Shown one piece after another: positions 18,323-61,460 of a stretch of 64,000 nt of DNA (the first letter of the stretch is position 1; each line of letters opens with the position of its first letter). Origin of the DNA: a bacterium (GTDB lineage Bacteria; Patescibacteriota; Microgenomatia; UBA10105; UBA927); the NCBI GenBank assembly GCA_021817785.1, contig JAKAFY010000002.1:11750-75749 (forward strand), in the 5' to 3' direction. A program made the position numbers and the translations under genes. The notes beneath the pieces were generated by a model that was not told the DNA's origin, searched no databases, and worked only from the letters and a program-made list of their open reading frames with translations.

Positions 18323-19906
18323 ATGGTTGAGGGTGCAGGAATACGAGAGTCATCGCTGATATCGCCTGAGCCGTCCAAAAAGACGGTACTCTATGGTATT
18401 GGACGGGCGGGGGAGGCAATCAATAAACAATTAGGGCCGAAAGCCTGGGAACAGCGGGTGGACAACGCCATAAGCACGTACATTATCCCTCATGTTTCTC
18501 CCGAGATGCGGGAGACGATAGAAACGTATAAGCCGGAAATAGCCAAATGGTCGGGCTGGGCGATTACCGGCGCCGAAGTGGCGGTAGTAGCTGCCGCAAC
18601 CTATGGTGGCATCCGGTTGGTGGTGAACAAACTTCATAAGCGGCACGTTCCCACTCCAAATTCTCCTGTTCCGGTTACCCCGGATTTGCATATTCGTTCT
18701 GATGCGAAGGAATGGTGGGAACGCATACGCATGGAGGGAGACATACCTGAAGATGATTCCGGTCTTGATTTGCTTAGAAAATTGAGTGCAAAAAAGCCCG
18801 CACCCCCGCCAGTATTTGTTGTAGGTCCGGACGAAGTTCCGTCATGGCTTCGTGAATTAGCAGGGGATCATGCGCCGGCCGGTGCCAAAGCAGATAATGT
18901 TCCTGATTGGGTGCAGGAAGTTATGCATCGCCGCACGTTACAGGGCGCTGATAAAGTGCCAGATTTTTTGAGAAAAATATCCGCACGCAACCATGTATCA
19001 CAAGCCAGCGAAGCGGCTGCGAGCGACATTGGTTCTCATACTTCACGATGGTGGCAAGACCGAGCTGCCGCAGGGTTGGATACGTCTGTATTGCACACCG
19101 TACGCAAAATACCCAAACCCAGGACCAGATCATCGCCTTCGTCCGTTCCGATCAAGGATTTGCCCGTTCATACCAGGATATATTTTGACAAGAAAAAGAT
19201 ACAGAACATTTTTGCACGGAGACGTTCTCGACGTATTCGGGATATTCAAAACCAGGTACGGCGGGTAAAAGAACGCCGTTTTTCGGACTTGGCGCACCCG
19301 ATCGACCCAATGGCTTCGGCCAATGCAGTCGTTCAGGTCTCCCCACGTGCGGAAGAATATCAACAGTTACTCAGACGAAAACGGGCTGAAACAGAACGAC
19401 TGTATATAGACGATATGCGCCTGCGGCAAGAGATGAGAGAAAATGCGAGGCTCCGGGCTCTCGAGAAGAAACGAGCAATACTGAAAGAAAAAATAGATGC
19501 AGTAAGAAAAAGAATGGGGGAACACCCTTATGCCGTCCAAATGGTAGCTCCGCGTATACAAGATGAGATTACGCGGGCAGCACAGTCCAAGGTACTTACT
19601 GCCAATCCGGTCCGGTCCGAGCAACAGGGATGGATTGCGGATCAGCTTCGGGAGGTGATGGAACGGATACATGAACCAAAGGTTCGCAGGCAGTTAGATC
19701 GGTTGCTCATAGCCCCGACAGATCTAACATCATCAGCAGAACGCGCTGAAGTCGGCCGTATCGTCACTGATTTATTTCAGGCAGTTCAGTCGGACAAAAC
19801 CCCCTCAATGCAGGCAACAGTTATTCAGCGGGGCAGTCAGTGGGTTTCGCTTGGTATGCCCGGGCTACATCATGTGATTGATTATTTCATCTCACATAGA
19901 AAATAA
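18323..19906 (+). CDS. paralog-array protein 2, with an Arg/Glu-rich coiled-coil C-terminus
   Basis: Conserved N-terminal module (KTVLYGIGRAGEAINKQ...SGWAITGAEVAVVAAATYG). The C-terminus has RRRSRRIRDIQNQVRRVKERR and long R/E-rich helices. Confidence 0.55.
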   Translation: MVEGAGIRESSLISPEPSKKTVLYGIGRAGEAINKQLGPKAWEQRVDNAISTYIIPHVSPEMRETIETYKPEIAKWSGWAITGAEVAVVAAATYGGIRLVVNKLHKRHVPTPNSPVPVTPDLHIRSDAKEWWERIRMEGDIPEDDSGLDLLRKLSAKKPAPPPVFVVGPDEVPSWLRELAGDHAPAGAKADNVPDWVQEVMHRRTLQGADKVPDFLRKISARNHVSQASEAAASDIGSHTSRWWQDRAAAGLDTSVLHTVRKIPKPRTRSSPSSVPIKDLPVHTRIYFDKKKIQNIFARRRSRRIRDIQNQVRRVKERRFSDLAHPIDPMASANAVVQVSPRAEEYQQLLRRKRAETERLYIDDMRLRQEMRENARLRALEKKRAILKEKIDAVRKRMGEHPYAVQMVAPRIQDEITRAAQSKVLTANPVRSEQQGWIADQLREVMERIHEPKVRRQLDRLLIAPTDLTSSAERAEVGRIVTDLFQAVQSDKTPSMQATVIQRGSQWVSLGMPGLHHVIDYFISHRK

Positions 19907-23691: not shown

Positions 23692-24894
23692 TCAATGATG
23701 TTTGATTGCTAGTGTTAGCAGTCGATAGTATCCAGTGACAATTTGGTGCCAATCAAAGTGATGGACAAGATGTTTTTGGAGCACTTTGGCAATCTTTTTC
23801 CGTTTTTCCGTATGGGTAAGTGCCCATAAAAGTGCTGCCCGTATGGCATGGTCATCTCCTGCAGGAATGAGTTTGCCGGTTTTATTGGGTACTATGACTT
23901 CCCGTACGCCCGCTACGTCGGTTGCTATGACGTATGCGCCGCTTGCACCCGCTTCCAGGATAACGTTGGGGAATCCTTCGTTATGATGGGAAGGGTGTAC
24001 AAATATGTCCGAAGCTTGGAGCGTATCGCGGACACCTTTGGTGTTTAGTGGACCCAGGAAAACGACACGGTTTTCCAGATTGTCCTGCCGAATCTGTTTT
24101 TTTATGGAGTCGGATAACGGACCATCACCTGCTATGGCGAAATAGACATTGCGTTTGAGTTTTGGGAACAACTGCCGAAATATTTTGTATATTTTAAGCG
24201 CCCCTTTGGCCCAGATGAGGCGACCGACAAAAGTGATAAAGATGTCTGTAGGCTTTACCTTGCGGCGTATGCCTGGTATACGACGTTTATTTCGCGCGAT
24301 AGGAGAAAAGTATGCAGTATCCACGCCGCCGTATACGAGCCGGATATTTTGTTTGAATGTATATGTGCGATTGAGAAACAATTGGGCAGATTTATTGGTT
24401 GCTGTGACAAGATCATAGCGGGGGAGGCTCCATGCAGCAAGGGTGTGGTCGACGAGGTTGGCTATGGCCTCTACTGTTTGATTTTCGTGTACCGGACGAC
24501 CCGCTACGTGTTCTGTGAATATACTTTTGGCTCCGATTATTTTGGCATACAGCCACGTCCACCAGGCCGAGTCGAAAAACCGCAGGTGGGTATGGACAAA
24601 CGTATAGTTATTGTGAGCCAGTTTGGATAATACCATGCAGAGTGCAATAGGATTTGGAAGAGCAAACTGGTCAGGGAGTATCTGCCAGCCGGGTATTCGG
24701 TATATCGTAAGACCGCGATAGGTTTCTACCGCGGGAGCATTGTCGGTGTTATAGCACACCACATCCACGGAGATGTGTTTATACGTTTCCATAAGGTGGA
24801 CGTAGAGCTCTTCCATATACCGCTGACTCCCCCCGATATGGGGGTAGAAGTACGGAGAGATAAGGAGGATATGTAATTGTGTTTTGCGTTTCAT
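23692..24894 (-). CDS. GT4-family glycosyltransferase
   Basis: N-terminal GGSQRY donor/acceptor fold, and the C-terminal EGFPNVILEAGASGAYVIATDVAGVREVI matches the GT4 E-x7-E motif region. Confidence 0.85.
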   Translation of the reverse strand: MKRKTQLHILLISPYFYPHIGGSQRYMEELYVHLMETYKHISVDVVCYNTDNAPAVETYRGLTIYRIPGWQILPDQFALPNPIALCMVLSKLAHNNYTFVHTHLRFFDSAWWTWLYAKIIGAKSIFTEHVAGRPVHENQTVEAIANLVDHTLAAWSLPRYDLVTATNKSAQLFLNRTYTFKQNIRLVYGGVDTAYFSPIARNKRRIPGIRRKVKPTDIFITFVGRLIWAKGALKIYKIFRQLFPKLKRNVYFAIAGDGPLSDSIKKQIRQDNLENRVVFLGPLNTKGVRDTLQASDIFVHPSHHNEGFPNVILEAGASGAYVIATDVAGVREVIVPNKTGKLIPAGDDHAIRAALLWALTHTEKRKKIAKVLQKHLVHHFDWHQIVTGYYRLLTLAIKHH

Positions 24895-35906: not shown

Positions 35907-36569
35907 TCAGGCGAGCCGTTTCCTCCCCATCATAAAGAGCAAGACGCCCATCCCGCCGATAGCGGCGAATGTCGCGATAATCATATTGTCTTCAAATCCC
36001 GCAACCGGCAGGGTCGTGGCACCTAAGACTTTGGTTTGTACGCAGAGTGAGCTTGTATCCTGGTCGGATTGGCCGCCCGGACCGGTGGCGGTCACGGTAT
36101 TGACGATATTGCAGGTGATGTCCTGGTTGGCAGGAAATACCGACGTGTCTTTGACTTTGACCAGTACGCGGTTATGGACGGTGGTGCCGGCGTTGAGATT
36201 GGACAATTCGTACGTCAGTTTGTTGGCCGCGGCTTCATACGTGCCCGGACCGGACACAAAGGTCACTTGGCTTGGGAATACGTCGATGACCGTCACCGTC
36301 TGGAAATTCACGTTACTTGTATTGGTTACGGCCACGTCGTATTCCACTTCATCTTTGGGGGAATATGCGGGATCAGCGCTTGTCAGATTTTCGACAAACA
36401 GGTTGGGATTTCCCGGATAGGCCACTTTTTTGTTGACAACGATATTGGTAGCCGGGCAGTCCACGGTAGCGCCGTATTGATTGGTGCAGCCGTCGGCCAG
36501 TGCTCGCGGAGCGATCGCGAATAACGAGCCGATAACCAGGAATGATGCAATTCGTTGTTTTGTGCTCAT
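35907..36569 (-). CDS. sortase-substrate-like surface protein (LPVAG sorting signal)
   Basis: N-terminal signal peptide. The C-terminal LPVAG is followed by the hydrophobic stretch IIATFAAIGGMGVLLFMM and the basic tail GRKRLA, the classic cell-wall sorting signal architecture. The protein is Thr/Val/Asn-rich. Confidence 0.6.
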   Translation of the reverse strand: MSTKQRIASFLVIGSLFAIAPRALADGCTNQYGATVDCPATNIVVNKKVAYPGNPNLFVENLTSADPAYSPKDEVEYDVAVTNTSNVNFQTVTVIDVFPSQVTFVSGPGTYEAAANKLTYELSNLNAGTTVHNRVLVKVKDTSVFPANQDITCNIVNTVTATGPGGQSDQDTSSLCVQTKVLGATTLPVAGFEDNMIIATFAAIGGMGVLLFMMGRKRLA

Positions 36570-37290: not shown

Positions 37291-38196
37291 TCAGATAGAC
37301 AAGGTCGAGTCTTGCACCAAATCTGCAAATATAAGAAGTCGCTCTGTCGTAGAACCCGGAGGCCAGCAGGTCTGGAGGATAAGATTTTTGGTGCCTGCGT
37401 GGGGGACGAGGTAAGAAACAGCCTCGGGAGAGACAATCTTTTTTTCGGTGATTTTGTATGTGTACTGGCGGCCTTTGTATATGATAGCTATCTGGTCTCC
37501 CGTGTCCAGGTTTTTGACCAGGTAAAAGACGGCGTTTAGGTCTTTTACAAACCAGTCGTAGCTTGTGGAATGGGAAAAAAGGTACACCGTGCCGTTTTCG
37601 TCCGGAAAGTAGCTTGTGGAGGCGTGTGCGACCCCTTCGGTGAGCGCTTTTTCGTATTCGCCCGGGTTTGCAGGATTGACGGCTGGGATAACCTTGGCAT
37701 TCACCCCGATTTTGGGGATGATGAGGCCAAAGTTGGTGTCCACCGGCACGATTGCGGAGCCGTCCGGATTGGTAAGCGGGGTAAAAAGCACGGTTTTGGC
37801 GTTCGTGGCCACGGGTTTGGGTGCGGGCTTTATGCGGTCGGCAAGGGAGCGCGAAAGCGTAGAGAACGCAGGCACCATACGCTTCGTGGCGCGGGAACCG
37901 TATTGAAGCGTCTCTATAGCAAGGATATCTGCCCGTTTTGCGGCTGTATTGATGATTGTACGAGCCTGCATGCTACGGTACCCAGCCTCTAACCGGATAA
38001 ACGGCGTAAGCGGGCCGGTAAGGCCGCCTAAAGCCAGCGCAATGAGGCCAAGGCCGAGTATTTTGCCAAGATCGGACTGTTTTTTTTGCGTTACTGTCGA
38101 CTGTGAACCGTGAACTACGGACTTTTTATAGTCCCAGTCGTGATAGTAGATGATGCCGGAGGAGCGCATAGAGTTAACAAAGTGACAAATTGACAA
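37291..38196 (-). CDS. sortase family transpeptidase
   Basis: N-terminal TM anchor, conserved His region (YLFSHS), catalytic TLxTC-like LILQTCWP, and RLLIFA (Arg). It lies about 700 bp from the LPVAG substrate gene. Confidence 0.75.
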   Translation of the reverse strand: MSICHFVNSMRSSGIIYYHDWDYKKSVVHGSQSTVTQKKQSDLGKILGLGLIALALGGLTGPLTPFIRLEAGYRSMQARTIINTAAKRADILAIETLQYGSRATKRMVPAFSTLSRSLADRIKPAPKPVATNAKTVLFTPLTNPDGSAIVPVDTNFGLIIPKIGVNAKVIPAVNPANPGEYEKALTEGVAHASTSYFPDENGTVYLFSHSTSYDWFVKDLNAVFYLVKNLDTGDQIAIIYKGRQYTYKITEKKIVSPEAVSYLVPHAGTKNLILQTCWPPGSTTERLLIFADLVQDSTLSI

Positions 38197-38649: not shown

Positions 38650-39231
38650 TTATTTACGTATACGCGGTGATGCCGCTATTGGGTGCGGCGATACATACAG
38701 CGATTTTTCAAACCGAACCATGGGAGTACCCGCTATGGTCACCCGGCCGGTTTCTTCAAAGCCTACGCCGGTAAATAACCGGATACTTTTTTCGTTATTG
38801 GGTTTGATCATAGCCCGGACAGACGTAAGGTGCACGGTGTTTTTTGCATACTCCAAGACTTGTTGTATGGTCTGCTTGCCTACGCCTTTACTCTGATATT
38901 CTTTTTCGCCGATGACGATGCCGATTTCTCCGGTATTTTGCGGTTGTTGATCTTGGCGCAAACTGACCAGTCCGATCGTTTTCCCCCCGGCTGTGATGTC
39001 AAAATAATGCCGAAGCGGGTCGGTGGTGGCGTAGTATATCCAGTTATCAATATCCTGCGGCATGCTGGGGAGGTCATCATACATCCATGTGCGTATATCA
39101 GGATCATTCATCCATTTCATCCAGTTGGTAAACGTTTGGTGCGAATCCGTGGTTTTTTTCAGCGTCACAGTCGGTTGGGATGGGATTTCTTTGTGCGTTG
39201 CTGGGATAGGTCGTTCGGCGATGGCGTTCAT
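38650..39231 (-). CDS. GNAT family N-acetyltransferase
   Basis: Acetyl-CoA binding motif region GIVIGEKEYQSKGVGKQTIQQVLEYAK (Q/R-x-x-G-x-G/A). Confidence 0.75.
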   Translation of the reverse strand: MNAIAERPIPATHKEIPSQPTVTLKKTTDSHQTFTNWMKWMNDPDIRTWMYDDLPSMPQDIDNWIYYATTDPLRHYFDITAGGKTIGLVSLRQDQQPQNTGEIGIVIGEKEYQSKGVGKQTIQQVLEYAKNTVHLTSVRAMIKPNNEKSIRLFTGVGFEETGRVTIAGTPMVRFEKSLYVSPHPIAASPRIRK

Positions 39232-39421: not shown

Positions 39422-40015
39422 TTATATTAGAGCCGGGGGAAGGGAAGGTATGGGCGCTGCTGCTCCCGGCATGCCGCGCATGACCGGAGTGCCGTTTATG
39501 ATTGCCCGGACAATTTGATCGGTGCTGCCGCCAGGAAGTTTGTCCCACATTTTCGCAGCATCCTTGCCGGCGGTTGTTTTGTAGTATTCCTGATACGTAA
39601 TCGTTTCATTTTGGATCGCTTTGCGTTCGTGAGCAATAATTCCCCATGGCCAGAGTGCACTTCCTGCAGCCATCGTCGCTCCTATGGCAATACCCGGCCC
39701 GACTATGCCCGGGAATACGGATCCAGCTGTGGCGGCAACAAGTGCCACCCATGCACCGGGAACCATGCCGAATACACGCATGGTGAGATCACTCATCAGC
39801 GTGTCCACATCTTTAATTTTGAGCATGTCTCTTAGTTTCGGAAGCATATCCTGATAACTCTTTTTGAGCGCCCCTTCAGGAAGTACTAAAATAATTTTTT
39901 GGAATTGTTCAGCGCGGGCGGAAGAAACCGGATGAATGATTTTTTCAATGCCACCTCGTACGCGGTCTACAATAGATGTAGATGATTGCTCGTGAGACAA
40001 GATACGTTCTGACAT
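39422..40015 (-). CDS. hypothetical membrane-associated protein
   Basis: 197 aa with the Gly/Ala-rich hydrophobic segment GAWVALVAATAGSVFPGIVGPGIAIGATMAAGSALW. It lies immediately downstream of the giant gene on the same strand. Confidence 0.4.
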   Translation of the reverse strand: MSERILSHEQSSTSIVDRVRGGIEKIIHPVSSARAEQFQKIILVLPEGALKKSYQDMLPKLRDMLKIKDVDTLMSDLTMRVFGMVPGAWVALVAATAGSVFPGIVGPGIAIGATMAAGSALWPWGIIAHERKAIQNETITYQEYYKTTAGKDAAKMWDKLPGGSTDQIVRAIINGTPVMRGMPGAAAPIPSLPPALI

Positions 40016-40060
40016 GAGCTAAGTATAAAGAGACAAGTCTAAAAATGCAAATTATAGGCT

Positions 40061-43000
40061 TTATTTCGTCTGTTTGGCAAACCGTACCTCGATTTTTTCA
40101 CCAACGACATCTATACGGTCCGCTTTCCAGGTACGACTGATTTTTTTATCCAGATGCTGGAGGACAATGTCATTAAAATTATTGAGCTGATGATGGATGG
40201 TGCCCGAAACCACTTTCATAAGAATCGGCAAGTCCATATGCAAAGAGTTCGGTTCTACGACGAGTCCCTTTTGCGGGTCGGTAATCAGCGTTCCGCTAAA
40301 TGCAGCCTCTCCGAATATGGGCGATTTTGCTTTCATATCAACAAGCTTTGCGGTATTTCCGTCCAGCGTGATTTTTCCCTCAGTAATACGCGTGTTTCCT
40401 GCCATATGGAGTGAAGACTTAAGATAATCCATAAGTTCGCCGGTCGTGACATCCATAACCGCGCTCGTCTGTTCTTTTGACCGGTCCAGGATATAATGCA
40501 TACGGTCCTCAACGCCTTCCGGAAGCATTTCCCGTGACGGCGCCGGCATAGCAACTTCCGGCGTTCCCTGGTTTTGGGTCGATGTAACGTCAGGAGAGGA
40601 AATGGAAGACGCCATGGTTTCCGCCTTCGCTGAAGCTTCGGCGGACAAGTCCGCTGGTCCCTCCGTCGCGGAAGCTTCTGAGGATGAGCCCGCAACATTT
40701 TCCAGTGCTTCTCGGGCAGTTGCCGGTTCCGGTTTCGTGGCCTCAACTACTTCGCTGGCTGCCTGTTTGGCAAACGCTTCCGTGTCTATTTCTGCACCCA
40801 TATTTGCCGATAAGCTGGTCATATCGGTTATCAGGACTTTGTCGTCTTTGACTTCGTATTGTATGCCTAACGCATCCATCGTGCGTTTAAAGTATCCGTC
40901 AAAACGGGCGGGGTTGGCTGCTTTAAGGGACGGATACAGTGTGGCATACATATTCGACAGGTTTGCTTCGAGTTGTTCTTTGGTATAGGATTCCGTGGCT
41001 TTTTGGGCCATATCGGACCATGACATATCTTTGTACGTATCATTCTTTTCAAGCGGGACCTGTTCGGCAAGTCCCATTGGCTGCAAATATTGGTAATAGA
41101 TGGTTTCCTTGGGGTCGATCGTTGTCCGCATTTCGGGAATGATTTGTATACCATCTCCAGAGCCGCGGGCCGACCTCATCATCCAGGAAAGTTCACGGTC
41201 CTCGGCTCCCGGGGAGTCCGCATGATAGCCGCCGACCGCCGCAAGAGAGCCTGCGCGGATAGCCATGTTGCCGCTATAGACATTCGGAATGCTTCCGGTA
41301 TCTCCATGGCGGACAAACGCGTCAAAGAGCTCAAATGCGCGGTGGCTTGCAAATAACATGGGATACTGGGTAAATGCTTCTGCGGGTAATTCATTTGCAC
41401 CACTTATGATATCAACAGTGGGATTGGCATCAGCGGCATCGATAAGGCCTGCGACATACGTGGGTTGTACCGTCATACCCGGCACGGTGTTGTCTGTCAA
41501 AAGCAGTACGTCCGGGTGATCGGCAGGAAGCGTACCTAACCGCGACAGGACGTAGTTCGAAAGATCCCGTTTGATGCGCCCGCTCTTCAGATCTCCGTCA
41601 TAGGTGTGGGAAAGATAGACGACATGTGCGTCCGGGTGCTCGGTCATGAACGTATCAACGTCTGTTTTTACCGTGCTTTCCGCTGCGGGATTGATGTCAT
41701 AGACGATGAGCTCTACCTTTTTAAGATCCAGAGGCGCGCCGTCTTTGGTAGTTTGATTTGTATACTGAGCCAGCCGTTGTCCGATACCGGTCCCCGCCGA
41801 AGACGTGGGGAAGGTGATAACGGTTCGCACATCTGGTGCGATCGGCGCATCATGCTGGGCGACCAGACCGGAAAGTATATTCGTATCCTCCTGCGGGAGC
41901 TGGCTTAGATACCATGCGATTTCCTCCGATTGGGAAAGTTTTGCCTGCGGATTTTCCGTAAGCCGCGGAGATTTCCGGCTATCCATGGTTTCTTTGGAAA
42001 TAAACGCGCCTTCGTTGCCCAGCGGGAAATAAAATGTTTCGGCAGACGGCGCTACTTCCGAAGGAAGTGCTTCCATGGGCGCGGCTTCCAATACGGATCG
42101 CACCGGAAGAATAACCGGGAACCAGGGGATTTCCCCGGCGACTGCGGTGGCAGTGTGTGTGGCTGCCGTGTTGAATTCACTGAATACCTGTCCGATATGA
42201 CGCGTTGCGAAATCTTCCGTTGACCGGCCGACAGACGACCCTGCTGCTGCCACATAGTCACGCGCGGCCATATCGCGCACCCCACGGTCGAGCATGTCCC
42301 CGGCATGTATAGCTTGCGTGGCTGCTGCATCATGAGCTTGTACGGTTTGTGCCGCCACAGCGTCATGTACCTGCGTCATTTCGCTGGGAAGCGTGTAGGG
42401 AATTTTGATCGTATTTCCGATAACAGGTCCGATGTGAGCCACTTCAGCAGTGGGATAGGACGGAGTAATGCTTATAAGATTGTGTGTAGCAGTCGGGGCT
42501 TCAACAACGGGTGCTCCAACGACCGGTGTGGTATGAGGTGCCGTGCCGCTTAAACGCGCCATAAATGAGGTAAGATCCGTCGGGTTCGGTAATTGATTAT
42601 CCTGTCCTACGTACCCGAGTTTCAACGCGATTGCTTCATACCGCGACTCTCCGCCTTTGTCATAAAGGTGTTGTATGGCATCAAGCGGACCCGCCGACTT
42701 TGCGAGTTCCTTCTGATAATCAATAAGCGCTTGGTGTTGAATTTTGGCAAATTCTTTTATGCCATCTGGTCCGAATACCTTCGGATCTACGTGAATTGTT
42801 GCATCGTTGGGAATTCTGGAAAGGTCCATTTCACTCGTTGGCCCTATACCGCCATGTGTAGCATCGCCAAATGTTGCATGGCGGAAGTTTTCCGGATGTT
42901 TTATTGCATCAAAAAAGTTGGCATGAGGTGAATCGTTGGGAATATCAATAACTTTGTCCATGTGATCGTGGGCATACATACGGAACATATTTTTAAAGGC

Positions 43001-46000
43001 GTTTGCCTCTGATACATTATTCGTTTTTCCCAGGAAGTAGTCCCATACGCCGCCCTTCCCAAGCTCTCCACCGGATATAGTCATCGGCTCGGTTACCGTC
43101 GAAGACGGCAGCACATCCGGATTTGTGACGCCGGATGCCGGGACGACGTTCGAAGCTGTGTGGACGTTTGTGGATTTCCAATCAAGGCCGTGTGCATGGA
43201 GCTGGTCGGTAATCCGCTGTAATTCAGTCGGGGTTCCCTGAAAGTTTCCTGTGCCATCAAATTTTACCGTCGTAACGACGGTATGGTTGGGGTCAAGAAT
43301 CTGCCAGTCATGATGGTCCGGGACGTAATGTATCGTGTAATCGGGAGGGAGATTGATGGCCAGCCGATCGACCCCTGCGGGGGCAGTAAGGTTTGGAATA
43401 GTGGGGGAATCATAGGTAAAAGAGCCTGGTTCACCGGCCGGATGTGCGTTTACCATATGGAGTCCTGCGTTGTGTAACGTGTCGGTCAACTGTTGCGGAC
43501 TCATGTCGTGCCCCAGGGTAATGTCGTGCACCGGACCATTGACGTGAAATGCCGCGTCGTAGGTTACCACGCGTTCGTCCGGTCCGCCGGTGACATGCTG
43601 TACGATATCGATTTCTTTGGGTAGTTGATATGTTTGGTTGCCGATGAGGACGGTGTGGTCCGCGGATGGGGGAGAGATCGGAACCGTTTCGGTACGTGTA
43701 CTTATCGGACTAAAGGTAGCCGGTTCGGTGCTGTTTTGTATCGTATCTTTAGCATGCTGAGTGGCGGTGTGGACCGCATCGGTAACCTGAGCATTGTGTG
43801 CAAGTGCTTCGACTCCCTGAATTGCTGCTCCTACGGCGGCACCGATGACACCGGCTTTCACGCCGTATTTGACCGCTTCCAATCTCGCCTCATTATTAAA
43901 CTCGGCAAGGATCGCATCCATACCCATGGCTTTTTCATCCGGTGTCGTTTGGCGTCCCGCAAACGGCCACCGGCGTTTGATCATATCTGCTTCCGGAGCG
44001 TATTGAGAGACGAAACCAAGCGTTGCTTTGACCGGGTCGTCAAAACTATCCATTTTACCGATGCCGTCTTTCAAAATTTGGGTCTGTGCAACGGTAAGTT
44101 TTTCCATGAATTCTGGGAATGCATTGCCGCCGAGTACGTTGTCTAATTTACCTAGGTCACTTAGGTGACTTAGGTCATTTAAGACATTTGAAGCCATAAT
44201 ATCGAGCGCCGCCCGTTCGCTTTCTATCCCTTCCCGGCTGGAATATTGGACCAGTCCGATGCGTTTGGGACCAACCTCACTTATGGCTTTGCGGGCGTGG
44301 AGATCGGCAACAGTCGCAAACGCGGTACGGAGTTCGTCGTCGGTAAGTGTCGTTTTCAGCACCGGCATGCCGCCATCTGCGGGCGTTTCATACAGACTGG
44401 ATTGCATGGTGTGCATCATTTCATTGGCGCTTCGCTGTTTCACACTAAAGCGTTCGAACCATGCACGGCGTTTCATGGTATCCGTAAATTGTGTCCCTGC
44501 CTCGCGTTCCCGCAGGTGCGTAAGATAATCTTTCTGGAGCTGGCCGTATTCTTTCCATCCGGCAAATACACCGCCCGCCAGTGCTCCTCCGGTAATATTT
44601 CCGATCGGTCCGCCGATAATGCGGAATGGAGTCGTTTTTAAAAAGTTCAGCGCGGATAATGCTATGGCGACGCCGGAACCGATCGTCGCTTCGTTAAACA
44701 CCATCGGCACGATGACATTTTTCTTATTGAGCCATTCATAGACTTCGCGCACCCTGCCGATACCGCGTTCGACGGCTGTGGGCTCCAAGCTCGTGACTTC
44801 TCCCATGGCACCCAACCCCAGCCGGATCTGGAGTCCGGACATGGCCTGGTCGATATTGGCAAGTCCTGCCTCATGCGACATTTTATTCCGGAGCATTTCT
44901 GCCGCATCAAAAAGACTCGAACTATATAATTCTGCTTCAGCAAATACATCCGGACGGACATTTTTGAGCGTCGCATTGAAGAATTCTTTTGTTCGTTTAT
45001 CAAACTCTGTTTTGTCCGCTATCTCGCCGGTGGCGTACTGTTTGAGTAATCCTTGTATCCCTTCCACTAATGGTTTGTGTTCTTCTTTGGTGGCATCCAA
45101 AATTTCCAGTTTTTCTCCGAGCTGGGTGCGGACAAACTGATCGGCTTTGTCCATGTCTTGGGAGAAACGCATACGTACCGCTTTTGCTTCCCGTTCAAAG
45201 ATTTCCGCGCCTTTAAGCTCTCCTGCGGCCTTCATGACGCCTATTTCTTCCAGTGCCATGTTTTGGATGGCGCTCCTCATACCGAGCTTATCTTTGAGCC
45301 AATCGATGGCCTTGGTGCCGGCACGTACGATGAAATTGGCATCGTTTAATTTTTTGTTGTACCGTTCGGTGGCCCGGGCTTCTGCCAGGCGGATGGATTG
45401 TTCGGCAAACGGCGTTTCTGCAGTTTTTAACATGTCCATGTAGTATTCCCGCGCCCGCTCATGGAAGTAGATGCCACCGATACTTTGTTTCCAAAGCGAG
45501 GTAAAGACAAACTCATGCACTGCGTGCGCGCCTTCTTTGGTTTTGTCCCAAAGGTTTTTGGTAGCAGCGGCACGCTCGGTCATTTGCGGCGTCGTCATTT
45601 TTTGCATCGCCCGGTCGGCCAGATCCAGTGCGCGGGTTTCATACGCCCGTAACCCGACGATCGTGATGGTATTCGGGTCTTCTGTCAGCGTTTCCAATAC
45701 TTTGCGGGCTTCTTTGGATGGCGTTGGTGTGGCAGGTATTGCCTCTTCTTGCGGCGCTTCCGGCTGTTCTGCAAGTTGTTCCTGCGGTATTTCCGTTTCC
45801 GGAAGGGGAGGTTCCGTCACTTCCTGCGGTAATGCTCCTTCAGCCGGATTGCCGGATTCATCCGGGGGCGTAAGATCTGCCGATACGTCTGATGTGCCTT
45901 TCGGCGTTTCATTATTATCTCCCGGTTGTATGGGAGTCTCTTGTTGGGTATCGGCGGGCGCATCAGCCGGAGACGGCTCGCTGGAGACAGCAGGTTCTGC

Positions 46001-46357
46001 GCCGGCCGCCGGTTGTTCTAATGCTAATGCTTCTTTCGGAATGATGTGCGCTACTCCCGCCTCATCTGTCCACTGGATGCCGGATATTTTGTCCCATGCC
46101 ATCTGGTCCATGGTGTCGACGTGGATGACTGGTTTGTCAATGATTTTGCCTTCCTCACCCTTTTTTCTGCTGGGCTCCCGGACCATAAGGACGCTGCTTT
46201 CGACGCCGGACGGAGAGCGCTTGTCCGATGATTGTATGACGACCGATGTGACCTCCGTGTCGCCCACTTTGATCGGGGTTTTAAGGTACAGCGGCGTCTC
46301 TCCCACAACGATTTGTTGCGGAATATGCATTTCCTGTGTCGGGATAGGGTCAGGCAT
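40061..46357 (-). CDS. giant (2098 aa) multidomain protein
   Basis: Continuous 6.3 kb ORF with a Pro/Glu-rich low-complexity linker near the N-terminus, several Gly/Ala-rich hydrophobic stretches, and a possible degenerate GT-A-like region (VITFPTSSAG...ELIVYDINP...LLLTDNTV). It contains the in-frame TTAGGTGAC repeat. Confidence 0.7.
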   Translation of the reverse strand: MPDPIPTQEMHIPQQIVVGETPLYLKTPIKVGDTEVTSVVIQSSDKRSPSGVESSVLMVREPSRKKGEEGKIIDKPVIHVDTMDQMAWDKISGIQWTDEAGVAHIIPKEALALEQPAAGAEPAVSSEPSPADAPADTQQETPIQPGDNNETPKGTSDVSADLTPPDESGNPAEGALPQEVTEPPLPETEIPQEQLAEQPEAPQEEAIPATPTPSKEARKVLETLTEDPNTITIVGLRAYETRALDLADRAMQKMTTPQMTERAAATKNLWDKTKEGAHAVHEFVFTSLWKQSIGGIYFHERAREYYMDMLKTAETPFAEQSIRLAEARATERYNKKLNDANFIVRAGTKAIDWLKDKLGMRSAIQNMALEEIGVMKAAGELKGAEIFEREAKAVRMRFSQDMDKADQFVRTQLGEKLEILDATKEEHKPLVEGIQGLLKQYATGEIADKTEFDKRTKEFFNATLKNVRPDVFAEAELYSSSLFDAAEMLRNKMSHEAGLANIDQAMSGLQIRLGLGAMGEVTSLEPTAVERGIGRVREVYEWLNKKNVIVPMVFNEATIGSGVAIALSALNFLKTTPFRIIGGPIGNITGGALAGGVFAGWKEYGQLQKDYLTHLREREAGTQFTDTMKRRAWFERFSVKQRSANEMMHTMQSSLYETPADGGMPVLKTTLTDDELRTAFATVADLHARKAISEVGPKRIGLVQYSSREGIESERAALDIMASNVLNDLSHLSDLGKLDNVLGGNAFPEFMEKLTVAQTQILKDGIGKMDSFDDPVKATLGFVSQYAPEADMIKRRWPFAGRQTTPDEKAMGMDAILAEFNNEARLEAVKYGVKAGVIGAAVGAAIQGVEALAHNAQVTDAVHTATQHAKDTIQNSTEPATFSPISTRTETVPISPPSADHTVLIGNQTYQLPKEIDIVQHVTGGPDERVVTYDAAFHVNGPVHDITLGHDMSPQQLTDTLHNAGLHMVNAHPAGEPGSFTYDSPTIPNLTAPAGVDRLAINLPPDYTIHYVPDHHDWQILDPNHTVVTTVKFDGTGNFQGTPTELQRITDQLHAHGLDWKSTNVHTASNVVPASGVTNPDVLPSSTVTEPMTISGGELGKGGVWDYFLGKTNNVSEANAFKNMFRMYAHDHMDKVIDIPNDSPHANFFDAIKHPENFRHATFGDATHGGIGPTSEMDLSRIPNDATIHVDPKVFGPDGIKEFAKIQHQALIDYQKELAKSAGPLDAIQHLYDKGGESRYEAIALKLGYVGQDNQLPNPTDLTSFMARLSGTAPHTTPVVGAPVVEAPTATHNLISITPSYPTAEVAHIGPVIGNTIKIPYTLPSEMTQVHDAVAAQTVQAHDAAATQAIHAGDMLDRGVRDMAARDYVAAAGSSVGRSTEDFATRHIGQVFSEFNTAATHTATAVAGEIPWFPVILPVRSVLEAAPMEALPSEVAPSAETFYFPLGNEGAFISKETMDSRKSPRLTENPQAKLSQSEEIAWYLSQLPQEDTNILSGLVAQHDAPIAPDVRTVITFPTSSAGTGIGQRLAQYTNQTTKDGAPLDLKKVELIVYDINPAAESTVKTDVDTFMTEHPDAHVVYLSHTYDGDLKSGRIKRDLSNYVLSRLGTLPADHPDVLLLTDNTVPGMTVQPTYVAGLIDAADANPTVDIISGANELPAEAFTQYPMLFASHRAFELFDAFVRHGDTGSIPNVYSGNMAIRAGSLAAVGGYHADSPGAEDRELSWMMRSARGSGDGIQIIPEMRTTIDPKETIYYQYLQPMGLAEQVPLEKNDTYKDMSWSDMAQKATESYTKEQLEANLSNMYATLYPSLKAANPARFDGYFKRTMDALGIQYEVKDDKVLITDMTSLSANMGAEIDTEAFAKQAASEVVEATKPEPATAREALENVAGSSSEASATEGPADLSAEASAKAETMASSISSPDVTSTQNQGTPEVAMPAPSREMLPEGVEDRMHYILDRSKEQTSAVMDVTTGELMDYLKSSLHMAGNTRITEGKITLDGNTAKLVDMKAKSPIFGEAAFSGTLITDPQKGLVVEPNSLHMDLPILMKVVSGTIHHQLNNFNDIVLQHLDKKISRTWKADRIDVVGEKIEVRFAKQTK

Positions 46358-46363
46358 ATATGG

Positions 46364-46726
46364 TTAATTACTTTTGGGTGGCTCAGCACCCAGGTACAAA
46401 CTGCGAAAATCGGCAAAAATCTGTGCGACCAATATATCCGGCTCGTTGACATATTTCGTGATAAAGGCATTGACCTGTTCCGGCGCCGGGTTGGTTTTAA
46501 TGAGATCAGACAGCTCATGTACCGCTTCGGGGTTGGCCGTGCTGATCATTTCGATCGTACGAAGGGTGAGGTATTGGTTCAATCGATCGGTTAGTTCCCG
46601 TTTGATGTCAGTAACCGCGGCTTCATCGGGGAGGCGGTCGCCGAATTTTTGGGTAATGAGTTCTTCGATAAACGTGTTGATGGCAGGTAATGATACATCC
46701 ATGGTTAGTATGTCATTCTCGCGCAT
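46364..46726 (-). CDS. small acidic helical hypothetical protein
   Basis: 120-aa ORF whose stop lies 6 nt before the giant gene start. Glu/Asp-rich. Confidence 0.4.
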   Translation of the reverse strand: MRENDILTMDVSLPAINTFIEELITQKFGDRLPDEAAVTDIKRELTDRLNQYLTLRTIEMISTANPEAVHELSDLIKTNPAPEQVNAFITKYVNEPDILVAQIFADFRSLYLGAEPPKSN

Positions 46727-47012
46727 GCGGGAATCCAGCGTATAATAAACTGGATCCCCGATCAGGTCGGGGATGACAAATGTTGTACTATATCCACACT
46801 ACGGGGTTTGGTGAGGGCCTGTCAAGGAGGCCAAAACTATAAAGAAATACTATCAACTAAATCAAAGTAGCCCAATTATTATTCGGAATGATACGGTTGT
46901 TGGGGAAGAAGAGGTAGGTTTGGTACGTTTCGTATGTGTAGTAGGATTGGGAATATTCACATGTGTTATCTGACTAAACCTACTAAACTTCTCAACCTAC
47001 GTAGTTTTTTTG

Positions 47013-47387
47013 TTAGCTCGCTTTTGCACTTCCCGTCCATTCCAGCTTCACATCTTGTTTGATGACTTTATCCGCAAGCATTTGTGCCTCTTTGTATTGT
47101 CCCTGCCGGATGAGGTGCTGCACTTCGACCGCGGCTTTTTGGGTGACGCCCTGTTCGTAATCCCGAAGGTAGGGGATGATGATGTGGGAAATTTCGGTAA
47201 ACGTATCGTCCAGATGGGGAAGCGTCTTGTATAAATCTTCCAGGCTCATGCCGGGCTTTAATTTCTCCAAGATCATCTGTGCCAGTTGCTGAGCGCGTTC
47301 TTCACTCATCTCCTCGGCTTCCACCTTGGCTTTGATAAGGTCGACAATACTGGCCTCTATTTGTTCACGGATATCATCGGGGGACAT
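47013..47387 (-). CDS. small acidic helical hypothetical protein
   Basis: 124 aa, Glu/Lys-rich, with a similar character to the 46364 gene. Confidence 0.4.
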   Translation of the reverse strand: MSPDDIREQIEASIVDLIKAKVEAEEMSEERAQQLAQMILEKLKPGMSLEDLYKTLPHLDDTFTEISHIIIPYLRDYEQGVTQKAAVEVQHLIRQGQYKEAQMLADKVIKQDVKLEWTGSAKAS

Positions 47388-60852: not shown

Positions 60853-60924
60853 TGCCCTTGGGGGGAATCGAACCCTCATCTCACCCTTAGGACGGGTTTG
60901 CTCTATCCATTGAGCTACAAAGGC
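60853..60924 (-). tRNA. tRNA-Arg (anticodon CCT), no encoded CCA
   Basis: Manual fold. Acceptor stem GCCTTTG/CAAGGGC (one G-U pair), D arm GCTC-AATGGATA-GAGC, anticodon stem with loop GTCCTAA (U33, CCT, A37), T arm GAGGG-TTCGATT-CCCCC, discriminator A. Confidence 0.75.
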
Positions 60925-61384: not shown

Positions 61385-61460
61385 CGGGGTGTGGCTCAGT
61401 TGGTAGAGCGCTTCGTTCGGGACGAAGAGGTCGTGAGTTCAAGTCTCACCACCCCGACCA
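61385..61460 (+). tRNA. tRNA-Pro (anticodon CGG) with encoded CCA
   Basis: Manual fold. Acceptor stem CGGGGTG/CACCCCG is fully paired. U8, D arm GCTC-AGTTGGTA-GAGC, anticodon stem CTTCG/CGAAG with loop TTCGGGA (U33, CGG, G37), T arm GTGAG-TTCAAGT-CTCAC, discriminator A, then CCA. Confidence 0.85.

Follow-up and report, generated by a model that had tools for sequence, protein, structure and literature searches.

A giant helical-core protein with a predicted GT-A domain and a DUF5663 partner gene in Patescibacteria

The subject of this study is a giant gene and its small upstream neighbour in a 64,000-nucleotide stretch of DNA (assembly GCA_021817785.1, contig JAKAFY010000002.1, positions 11,750 to 75,749; hereafter the window). 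The stretch comes from a candidate-phyla-radiation bacterium (CPR, Patescibacteria) whose relatives are Candidatus Gottesmanbacteria, in agreement with the reduced-genome organism presumed in a preliminary description of this DNA. By its sequence relationships, the giant gene belongs to a Gottesmanbacteria family that lies inside a Patescibacteria-wide superfamily combining a helical core with a glycosyltransferase (GT) domain of the GT-A fold. Judged from the loci compared below, the giant gene and the DUF5663 gene directly upstream of it are a two-gene module conserved across Patescibacteria. The explanation we favour, at a probability of roughly 0.55, is that the giant protein is an intracellular helical platform, partnered by the DUF5663 protein, and that its GT2-like module acquired a remodelled donor site in the window clade. 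The two genes, the first defined by its open reading frame (ORF) and translation and the second by profile comparison, are as follows.

40061..46357, minus strand: giant gene, 2098 aa plus stop, ATG start, single uninterrupted frame
46364..46726, minus strand: up120, small acidic helical protein of the DUF5663 family, 120 aa, pI 4.46

The single 6.3 kb ORF reported in the preliminary description is therefore present as described. An open frame of 2098 sense codons would be expected by chance with a probability of about e^-100, and uninterrupted full-length homologues, more than 50 in number and 1,700-2,140 aa long, are found in independent Candidatus Gottesmanbacteria assemblies, so the gene is real and not the product of a frameshift artefact. 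It has no polyketide synthase or nonribosomal peptide synthetase architecture. When each GTDB species was represented by one genome, 19 giant-gene loci were found, whose informative titles were Candidatus Gottesmanbacteria or Patescibacteria group. Titles reading 'uncultured Gammaproteobacteria bacterium' on the Gottesmanbacteria-type loci L002, L003, L007, L008, L010, L012-L015, L018 and L019 are an apparent placeholder or mislabel in bulk-deposited metagenome-assembled genomes. The 56 homologues of the giant protein all lack both an informative name and a precomputed Pfam domain. The giant protein itself had no significant match in Pfam, NCBIfam, PHROGs or PADLOC, and searches of PDB sequences with phmmer and with profiles of the whole family, the GT region, the mid domain, the C-domain and the diverse core gave chance-level matches only. 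The protein has no paralogue in the window. Only one database entry is 100 % identical to it (NCBI, P0002), a fragment of 1207 aa from a contig of 27.9 kb, and the public annotation of the source organism appears to carry a shortened giant gene; the small gene up124, described below, lies there on a 184.6-kb contig.

The domain layout was derived from two AlphaFold models (residues 1-1090 and 1091-2098) built from a 46-sequence alignment, and from conservation and composition. From N- to C-terminus, with model confidence as pLDDT (predicted local distance difference test), it reads as follows.

46010..46324, minus strand: residues 12-116, N-terminal beta-rich domain, 8 strands, pLDDT ~80
45713..46009, minus strand: residues 117-215, acidic Pro/Glu-rich disordered linker, pLDDT ~30
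43718..45712, minus strand: residues 216-880, all-helical core, best-conserved part, pLDDT 50-85
44015-45154, minus strand: residues ~402-781, superfamily-wide core segment, from profile matches in distant relatives
44552-44716, minus strand: residues 548-602, Gly/Ala-rich helical hairpin, with invariant N555-E556 and E603
43178..43660, minus strand: residues ~900-1060, two small beta/alpha modules, pLDDT 80-88
42533..43087, minus strand: residues 1091-1275, 'mid' alpha/beta domain, pLDDT ~90
minus strand: residues 1276-1439, variable stretch, low model confidence
40688..42040, minus strand: residues 1440-1890, glycosyltransferase region, alternating beta/alpha, pLDDT >90
41075-41839, minus strand: residues ~1507-1761, GT-A core, from AlphaFold and Foldseek
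minus strand: residues 1891-1944, second acidic linker, low model confidence
40064..40525, minus strand: residues 1945-2098, C-terminal alpha+beta domain, pLDDT ~90

The core has a column identity of 50-75 % and holds most of the invariant residues of the family. The first linker consists of 41-65 % gaps in the family alignment, with a net charge of about -19; the Pro/Glu-rich stretch singled out earlier, PEAPQEEAIPATPTPS, lies within it at residues 199-214. The Gly/Ala-rich hydrophobic segments that were also mentioned there were located at residues 550-577, 588-605 and 831-849. The C-terminal domain is indeed separate, but it is mixed alpha+beta in the AlphaFold model and not simply beta-rich. 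It is essentially specific to the family, the shorter basal members being without it. Neither this domain nor the mid domain had a PDB sequence match, and Foldseek found no fold match in PDB or BFVD for the N-terminal domain.

With a profile of residues 1-865, a search of 1.84 billion cluster representatives (clusters at 50 % identity) produced 525 matches at E<=1e-3, of which 351 reach E<=1e-10 and 64 reach E<=1e-30. Matches beyond the window family are ~1,000-3,100 aa long (median 1,438) and align mainly with window residues ~402-781, usually near their own N-terminus. When hidden Markov models (HMMs) of the sub-domains were run on 140 distant representatives, the central core (coreB) was detected in 137, the window-type GT domain in 68, the segment preceding the GT domain in 51, the beta/alpha modules in 45, the mid domain in 30, the N-domain in 16 and the C-domain in 1. 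According to these profiles, the architecture that recurs is a helical core followed by a window-type GT-A domain, of which the window protein represents an expanded form. Since the labelled members belong to Gottesmanbacteria, 'Patescibacteria group' and Candidatus Paceibacterota, the superfamily spans deep lineages of Patescibacteria.

Across eight very diverse members the core keeps 19 invariant positions, among them a G-E pair, N555-E556 where the hairpin starts and E603 directly after it. The profile of the diverse core had no match among PDB sequences. Foldseek of the N-terminal half against PDB and the viral BFVD gave no match at E<=1e-3, a weak negative given the low confidence of the core model, and only generic long-helix matches were seen for this half (SMC-like, tape-measure, colicin Ia and T7 core proteins). 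The helical core appears to be a new domain, apparently undescribed. Other domains fused to it in relatives are Glyco_transf_9, FHA, a PP2C-like segment, an FkbM methyltransferase, a DnaJ J-domain and HTH; a protein kinase is fused to it in 2 of 31 sampled relatives. In one superfamily member of 3132 aa (P0089, locus L022, 4001-13399) GT9, FHA and a PP2C-like segment are all joined to the core; another, of 2309 aa (P0061, locus L027, 22-6951), has two tandem GT domains with the canonical DAD in both.

The small gene up120 ends 6 nt before the ATG of the giant gene, so the acidic 120-aa protein described earlier as immediately preceding it is in place. Profile alignment of up120 with four Pfam-annotated DUF5663 proteins (hhalign) gave 97.6 % at E 2.9e-12, and an HMM built from the DUF5663 proteins matched up120 at E 1.8e-13. 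The alignment covers 97 columns and includes the N-terminal F-I-x-x-L-I-x-x-K and C-terminal F-R-x-x-Y-L-G signatures. Size and placement, immediately before a giant gene with the core, also agree with the family. The sequence of up120 has diverged so far that a direct scan with the Pfam model (PF18908) missed it. The start of up120 may be the internal Met9, as homology begins at residues 8-16. A literature search found no paper mentioning DUF5663 or PF18908.

Contigs were retrieved for 12 distant relatives, and the upstream region was present in nine of them (P0082, P0104, P0115, P0089, P0133, P0113, P0095, P0173 and P0192), P0160 and P0061 being cut by contig ends. All nine have a DUF5663/PF18908 gene of ~100-110 aa directly upstream, on the same strand and at a gap of 1-33 nt; the other neighbours are unrelated from locus to locus. 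A DUF5663 gene is directly upstream in all of the Gottesmanbacteria loci as well. Since the pairing is present in P0113, P0095 and P0089, where the window-family GT domain was undetected, it follows the core and not the GT domain. Judged by gene order, the up120-type DUF5663 gene is the obligate genomic partner of the helical core. Its constant position in the distant loci fits the suggestion in the preliminary description that the flanking acidic proteins are chaperones or assembly factors, as far as a partner or assembly role is concerned; up124, a clade-restricted orphan, gives that suggestion no such support, and nothing shows chaperone activity for either protein.

The C-terminal half of the giant protein is where an enzyme activity would reside. 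Foldseek of the C-half model against PDB gave 68 matches at E<=1e-3, all 68 being GT2-type GT-A glycosyltransferases. The top match was PcManGT (6yv7, 8.8e-9), and others were WrtF (9omn), RmlT (8bz5), K4CP (2z87), SpsA (1h7q), GtrB (9nye) and the catalytic domains of hyaluronan, chitin and cellulose synthases. In the model, residues ~1507-1761 form a domain with a GT2-like GT-A fold, and the weak GT-A-like spacing first noticed at ~40960-41770 falls inside this confidently modelled region. A few family members have sub-threshold matches to the Pfam GT2 clan (E 0.002-0.007), and the window protein itself has a weak NCBIfam match to EpsD (E 0.013). The HMM of the window-family GT domain matches the distant relatives P0061 (7e-48) and P0115 (9e-68), which themselves match Pfam Glycos_transf_2 (PF00535), so membership in the GT-A-fold GT2 glycosyltransferases is supported transitively; the NCBI label of P0115 is 'glycosyltransferase'.

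Motif counts were made in the 46-member window family and in 66 GT domains from distant superfamily members. The window domain shares with GT2-family enzymes the beta/alpha/beta GT-A fold, the beta1 'V-I-P' (P1517 in 45 of 46 family members), the 'G-N-x-A-x-R...GG(Y/F)' pattern and the 'ED' base motif. In the family, G1593 is invariant (46/46), 'G-N-x-A-x-R1701' and 'G1709-G-Y-N' are strongly conserved, and the base motif A-E1719-D1720-R-E1722 has E1719 in 44/46 and D or E at 1720 in 46/46, the distant domains having D in 61/66. The donor site differs. The end of beta4 in the window reads LLLT-D1622-N-T-V, and the canonical S-[NE]-D-A-D aligns to N1623-T1624-V1625, both Asp of the D-A-D being lost. 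The distant domains have D in 61/66, A in 59/66 and D in 60/66 at these three positions, whereas the family has residues of a [DE]-N-[GS]-T type, N, G or T standing where the superfamily has D-A-D, with the third position acidic in only 1/46. The replacements are themselves conserved, with an acidic residue one position earlier in 35/46. A further Asp conserved in the superfamily (64/66 distant domains) is Asn in the family (N1601), and at the end of beta2 the 'V-N' of the superfamily has become 'Y-[DE]' (D1554). Basal family members (P0050-52 and P0058) retain S-N-D-A-D, which is also seen in the canonical relatives P0076, P0082 and P0115. Since the replacement residues are conserved within the clade, the donor/metal site looks like one remodelled under selection and not one in decay; transfer activity of the window GT domain is predicted at most.

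Compared with GT2 enzymes, the window domain is thus unusual in having the DXD and two more donor-site residues replaced, in lying near the C-terminus of a 2098-aa protein downstream of a 660-aa helical core, and in being invisible to Pfam, NCBIfam and PDB sequence profiles. Distant superfamily members, by contrast, have the canonical DAD and reach the Pfam GT2 threshold. The polyisoprenyl-phosphate GT2s (GtrB, DPMS and PcManGT), which include the best fold match, differ from the window protein in that its helices after the GT domain are hydrophilic, it has no C-terminal transmembrane (TM) segments and its DXD is absent; GtrB and DPMS differ in particular in the C-terminal TM hairpin, which the window protein lacks together with a QxxRW motif.

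We propose that the DUF5663 protein would bind the helical core, and that the core would be a platform, either oligomerising or membrane-peripheral. Enzyme activity would come from the C-terminal modules, ancestrally a glycosyl transfer that depends on nucleotide sugars and has some envelope precursor or a protein as acceptor. The module of the Gottesmanbacteria clade would have an altered donor/metal requirement, or would be a non-catalytic sugar/nucleotide-binding module. On a broader and more tentative interpretation, for which we would not claim an even chance, DUF5663 and the helical core constitute an unrecognised Patescibacteria-wide machine, a platform into which GT2, GT9, kinase, FHA/PP2C, DnaJ and methyltransferase modules are plugged. 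Such a machine may organise envelope glycosylation or assembly, and the Gottesmanbacteria version would be an expanded form of it in which the GT-A domain has switched mechanism or become a pseudo-enzyme.

It is also conceivable, though rather unlikely in our view, that the protein is a non-catalytic scaffold, with the GT-A domain of the window clade a pseudo-enzyme binding module and the function residing in the core/DUF5663 platform and in the clade-specific N-, mid and C-domains. The loss of both D-A-D aspartates and of the second conserved Asp at N1601 would be expected of a pseudo-enzyme, the core is better conserved than the GT domain, and many relatives have no detectable GT domain. However, the ED base, the G-N-x-A-x-R and the GGYN are near-invariant in the clade, and the conserved replacement residues, with an acidic residue shifted by one position in most members, suit a remodelled active site. 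Moreover, metal-independent GT-A enzymes exist.

The intracellular location in the favoured explanation rests on several features. No signal-peptide-like N-terminus was found in the window protein, its family or 121 long distant relatives. The window protein contains no 19-mer with a hydropathy above 1.8, nor do 102 of the 121 relatives, and it has no LPxTG motif. Across the superfamily the hairpin helices are rich in Gly, Ala and Ser, with a median maximum 17-mer hydropathy of ~1.45 that exceeds 1.6 in about a quarter; the hairpin may be tightly packed or membrane-peripheral and is not callable as transmembrane. GT-A enzymes use cytoplasmic nucleotide sugars. This dependence, together with the missing export signals and the intracellular type of the domains fused in relatives, favours an intracellular protein. 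Sortase-anchored surface proteins have an N-terminal signal peptide and a C-terminal LPxTG-type signal, both of which are seen in a nearby 220-aa DUF11 protein and neither in the giant protein. The host-interaction machinery and surface exposure proposed in the preliminary description therefore find no support: the protein has no signal peptide, strong TM segment or sorting signal, and its relatives are fused to kinase, FHA, PP2C-like, DnaJ, GT9 and methyltransferase domains.

A related and improbable alternative is that of a secreted or translocated effector, in which DUF5663 is a secretion chaperone, the hairpin enters the host membrane and the GT domain modifies host targets. CPR bacteria are thought to be episymbionts, a missing Sec signal is compatible with chaperone-dependent export, and a small acidic helical partner gene, large size, a hydrophobic hairpin and a GT domain are the combination known from large clostridial toxins. 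Like the large glycosylating toxins of the TcdA/TcdB type and other giant effectors, the giant protein is very large and multi-domain, has a GT-A domain and a hydrophobic helical region, and comes from a presumed host-dependent organism. It differs from those toxins in domain order and GT family, in having no DXD, and in that the Pfam scan found no autoprotease or receptor-binding repeats and no toxin domain. Its structural neighbours are GT2 biosynthetic enzymes and not toxin-type GTs, and its hairpin is only moderately hydrophobic. Furthermore, the domains fused to the core in relatives include kinase, FHA, PP2C-like and DnaJ, which are cytoplasmic signalling domains, and no secretion-system genes were seen near the giant gene in the loci examined. 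Conservation of the core is high, and each locus has a single copy of the gene, which is syntenic with housekeeping-type genes and not patchy. Giant genes reported previously (bioRxiv 10.1101/2023.11.21.568195) are from other lineages and belong to a different family, and the literature on the Lipocone concerns families other than that of the giant protein.

A membrane-embedded processive polysaccharide synthase of the cellulose, hyaluronan or chitin synthase kind, with the core as polymer channel, would account for the synthase GT domains among the Foldseek matches and for the hydrophobic helices in the core, but this explanation is largely refuted, since unlike BcsA, HAS and chitin synthase the window protein has no QxxRW (found anywhere in only 1/55 family and 5/121 distant members) and no strong TM segment, its hydrophobic helices number only 2-3 and lie ~900 residues before the GT domain, the DXD is lost in the window clade, and the best Foldseek matches (PcManGT, WrtF and RmlT) are non-processive GT2s.

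Several observations weigh against an intracellular DUF5663-partnered platform with a remodelled GT module. The metal-binding DXD is absent from the window GT domain, which makes catalysis uncertain, and in a direct scan this domain alone falls below the Pfam thresholds. The core model has a pLDDT of only 50-85 with no structural or sequence match, and the role given to the core is pure inference. Among ~200 sequences there is no fusion of DUF5663 to the core that would prove physical interaction of the two. Missing Sec signals would still be compatible with non-classical export, and the hairpin and the segment 831-849 could insert into a membrane. Lastly, the genes adjoining the giant gene differ between lineages.

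A large part of bacterial diversity belongs to Patescibacteria, and functions have been assigned to only a minority of the lineage-specific genes that they conserve. Here a cryptic GT2-like domain is revealed that curated profile libraries had missed. The large superfamily to which the protein belongs numbers no fewer than 525 clusters at 50 % identity and has a new helical core domain as its defining part. Through strict gene pairing, DUF5663, an orphan Pfam family, gains its first genomic-context partner. The GT-A fold itself is already known; what appears to be undescribed is the DXD-less cryptic state, the helical core and the strict DUF5663 pairing across Patescibacteria. The clade-specific rewiring of the donor site offers a clean test case for a change of GT-A mechanism against conversion to a binding module. 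The focus for this protein moves from host interaction at the surface to an intracellular role, possibly in envelope biogenesis. If the broader interpretation is correct, the DUF5663-core module would be a new cellular system shared across the CPR, a group in which envelope biogenesis is still poorly charted.

Two further small genes flank the module, all four genes being on the minus strand as previously described.

47013..47387, minus strand: up124, acidic orphan protein, 124 aa, pI 4.86, 286 nt further upstream of up120
39422..40015, minus strand: dn197, basic protein, 197 aa, pI 9.36, following the giant gene after 45 nt

The two small acidic proteins had been called similar, which is not borne out: up120 and up124 are rejected as paralogues at a BLASTP E of 27. 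The up124 protein is 53-85 % identical in related loci and syntenic only within the Gottesmanbacteria-level clade; among the distant loci a homologue was found only in the nearest outgroup locus, L020. Its family of 119 homologues, all at least 51 % identical, is unnamed and without Pfam domains. By this distribution up124 is not part of the superfamily-wide module. A homologue of dn197 (tblastn, E<=1e-3) was found only in L007, with possible divergent analogues after the giant gene in L014, L016 and L017; since it is missing from most related loci, it was rejected as a conserved partner. Comparative genomics of the flanking small genes, proposed earlier as a check, thus supports synteny superfamily-wide for up120 and within the Gottesmanbacteria-level clade for up124, but not for the patchy dn197. 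The best 19-mer of dn197 has a hydropathy of 1.67, and its Gly/Ala-rich hydrophobic hairpin-like stretch GAWVALVAATAGSVFPGIVGPGIAIGATMAAGSALWPW resembles the giant hairpin (548-602) in composition. It is probably a separate transcription unit; a promoter-like match of 11/12 (a consensus match only) lies at 40051-40080.

The gene order conserved in Gottesmanbacteria loci is M16 peptidase (divergent), Maf-like gene, up124, up120, giant gene, GNAT, sortase and DUF11 protein. Since these genomes are close relatives and collinear over the entire region, their shared gene order is in itself a poor guide to function. The up124-up120 intergenic gap (46727-47012) is 286 nt of non-coding DNA with a promoter-like match at 46836-46865. 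Just upstream of the up120 start it contains an 8-bp GC-rich hairpin on the minus strand (46754-46774; ATCCCCGA-CCTGA-TCGGGGAT), which could be the terminator of up124 or a 5'-untranslated region element. Promoter and terminator scans showed no enrichment relative to shuffled sequence, and the operon boundaries can therefore be taken as no more than suggestive. Rfam at gathering thresholds gave nothing in this gap, its sole matches in the window being two tRNA genes at 60853-60924 (minus strand) and 61385-61457 (plus strand).

Downstream of the giant gene, the GNAT acetyltransferase gene (38650-39231, minus strand) has as its best NCBIfam match PseH, the N-acetyltransferase of the pseudaminic-acid pathway (7.6e-17, below the curated cut-off), a weak hint of sugar modification near the giant gene; its homologue in L006 is extended to 610 aa. 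The sortase gene (37291-38196, minus strand; Pfam Sortase 1.3e-20) lies ~2 kb downstream of the giant gene. The 220-aa DUF11 protein (35907-36569, minus strand) has a signal-peptide-like N-terminus and a C-terminal 'LPVAG' with a hydrophobic segment and RKR, and is a probable sortase substrate. Synteny of the sortase and DUF11 pair extends to nearly all related loci; the pair is also found downstream of P0061 (L027).

Elsewhere in the window, three ORFs had no Pfam match at E<=1e-5: 18323-19906 (plus strand, 527 aa), 27984-29249 (minus strand, 421 aa) and 24891-27749 (minus strand, 952 aa). The last is no paralogue of the giant core or GT domain, and it shares 4 nt with the beginning of a GT4 glycosyltransferase gene (23692-24894), which suggests an operon.

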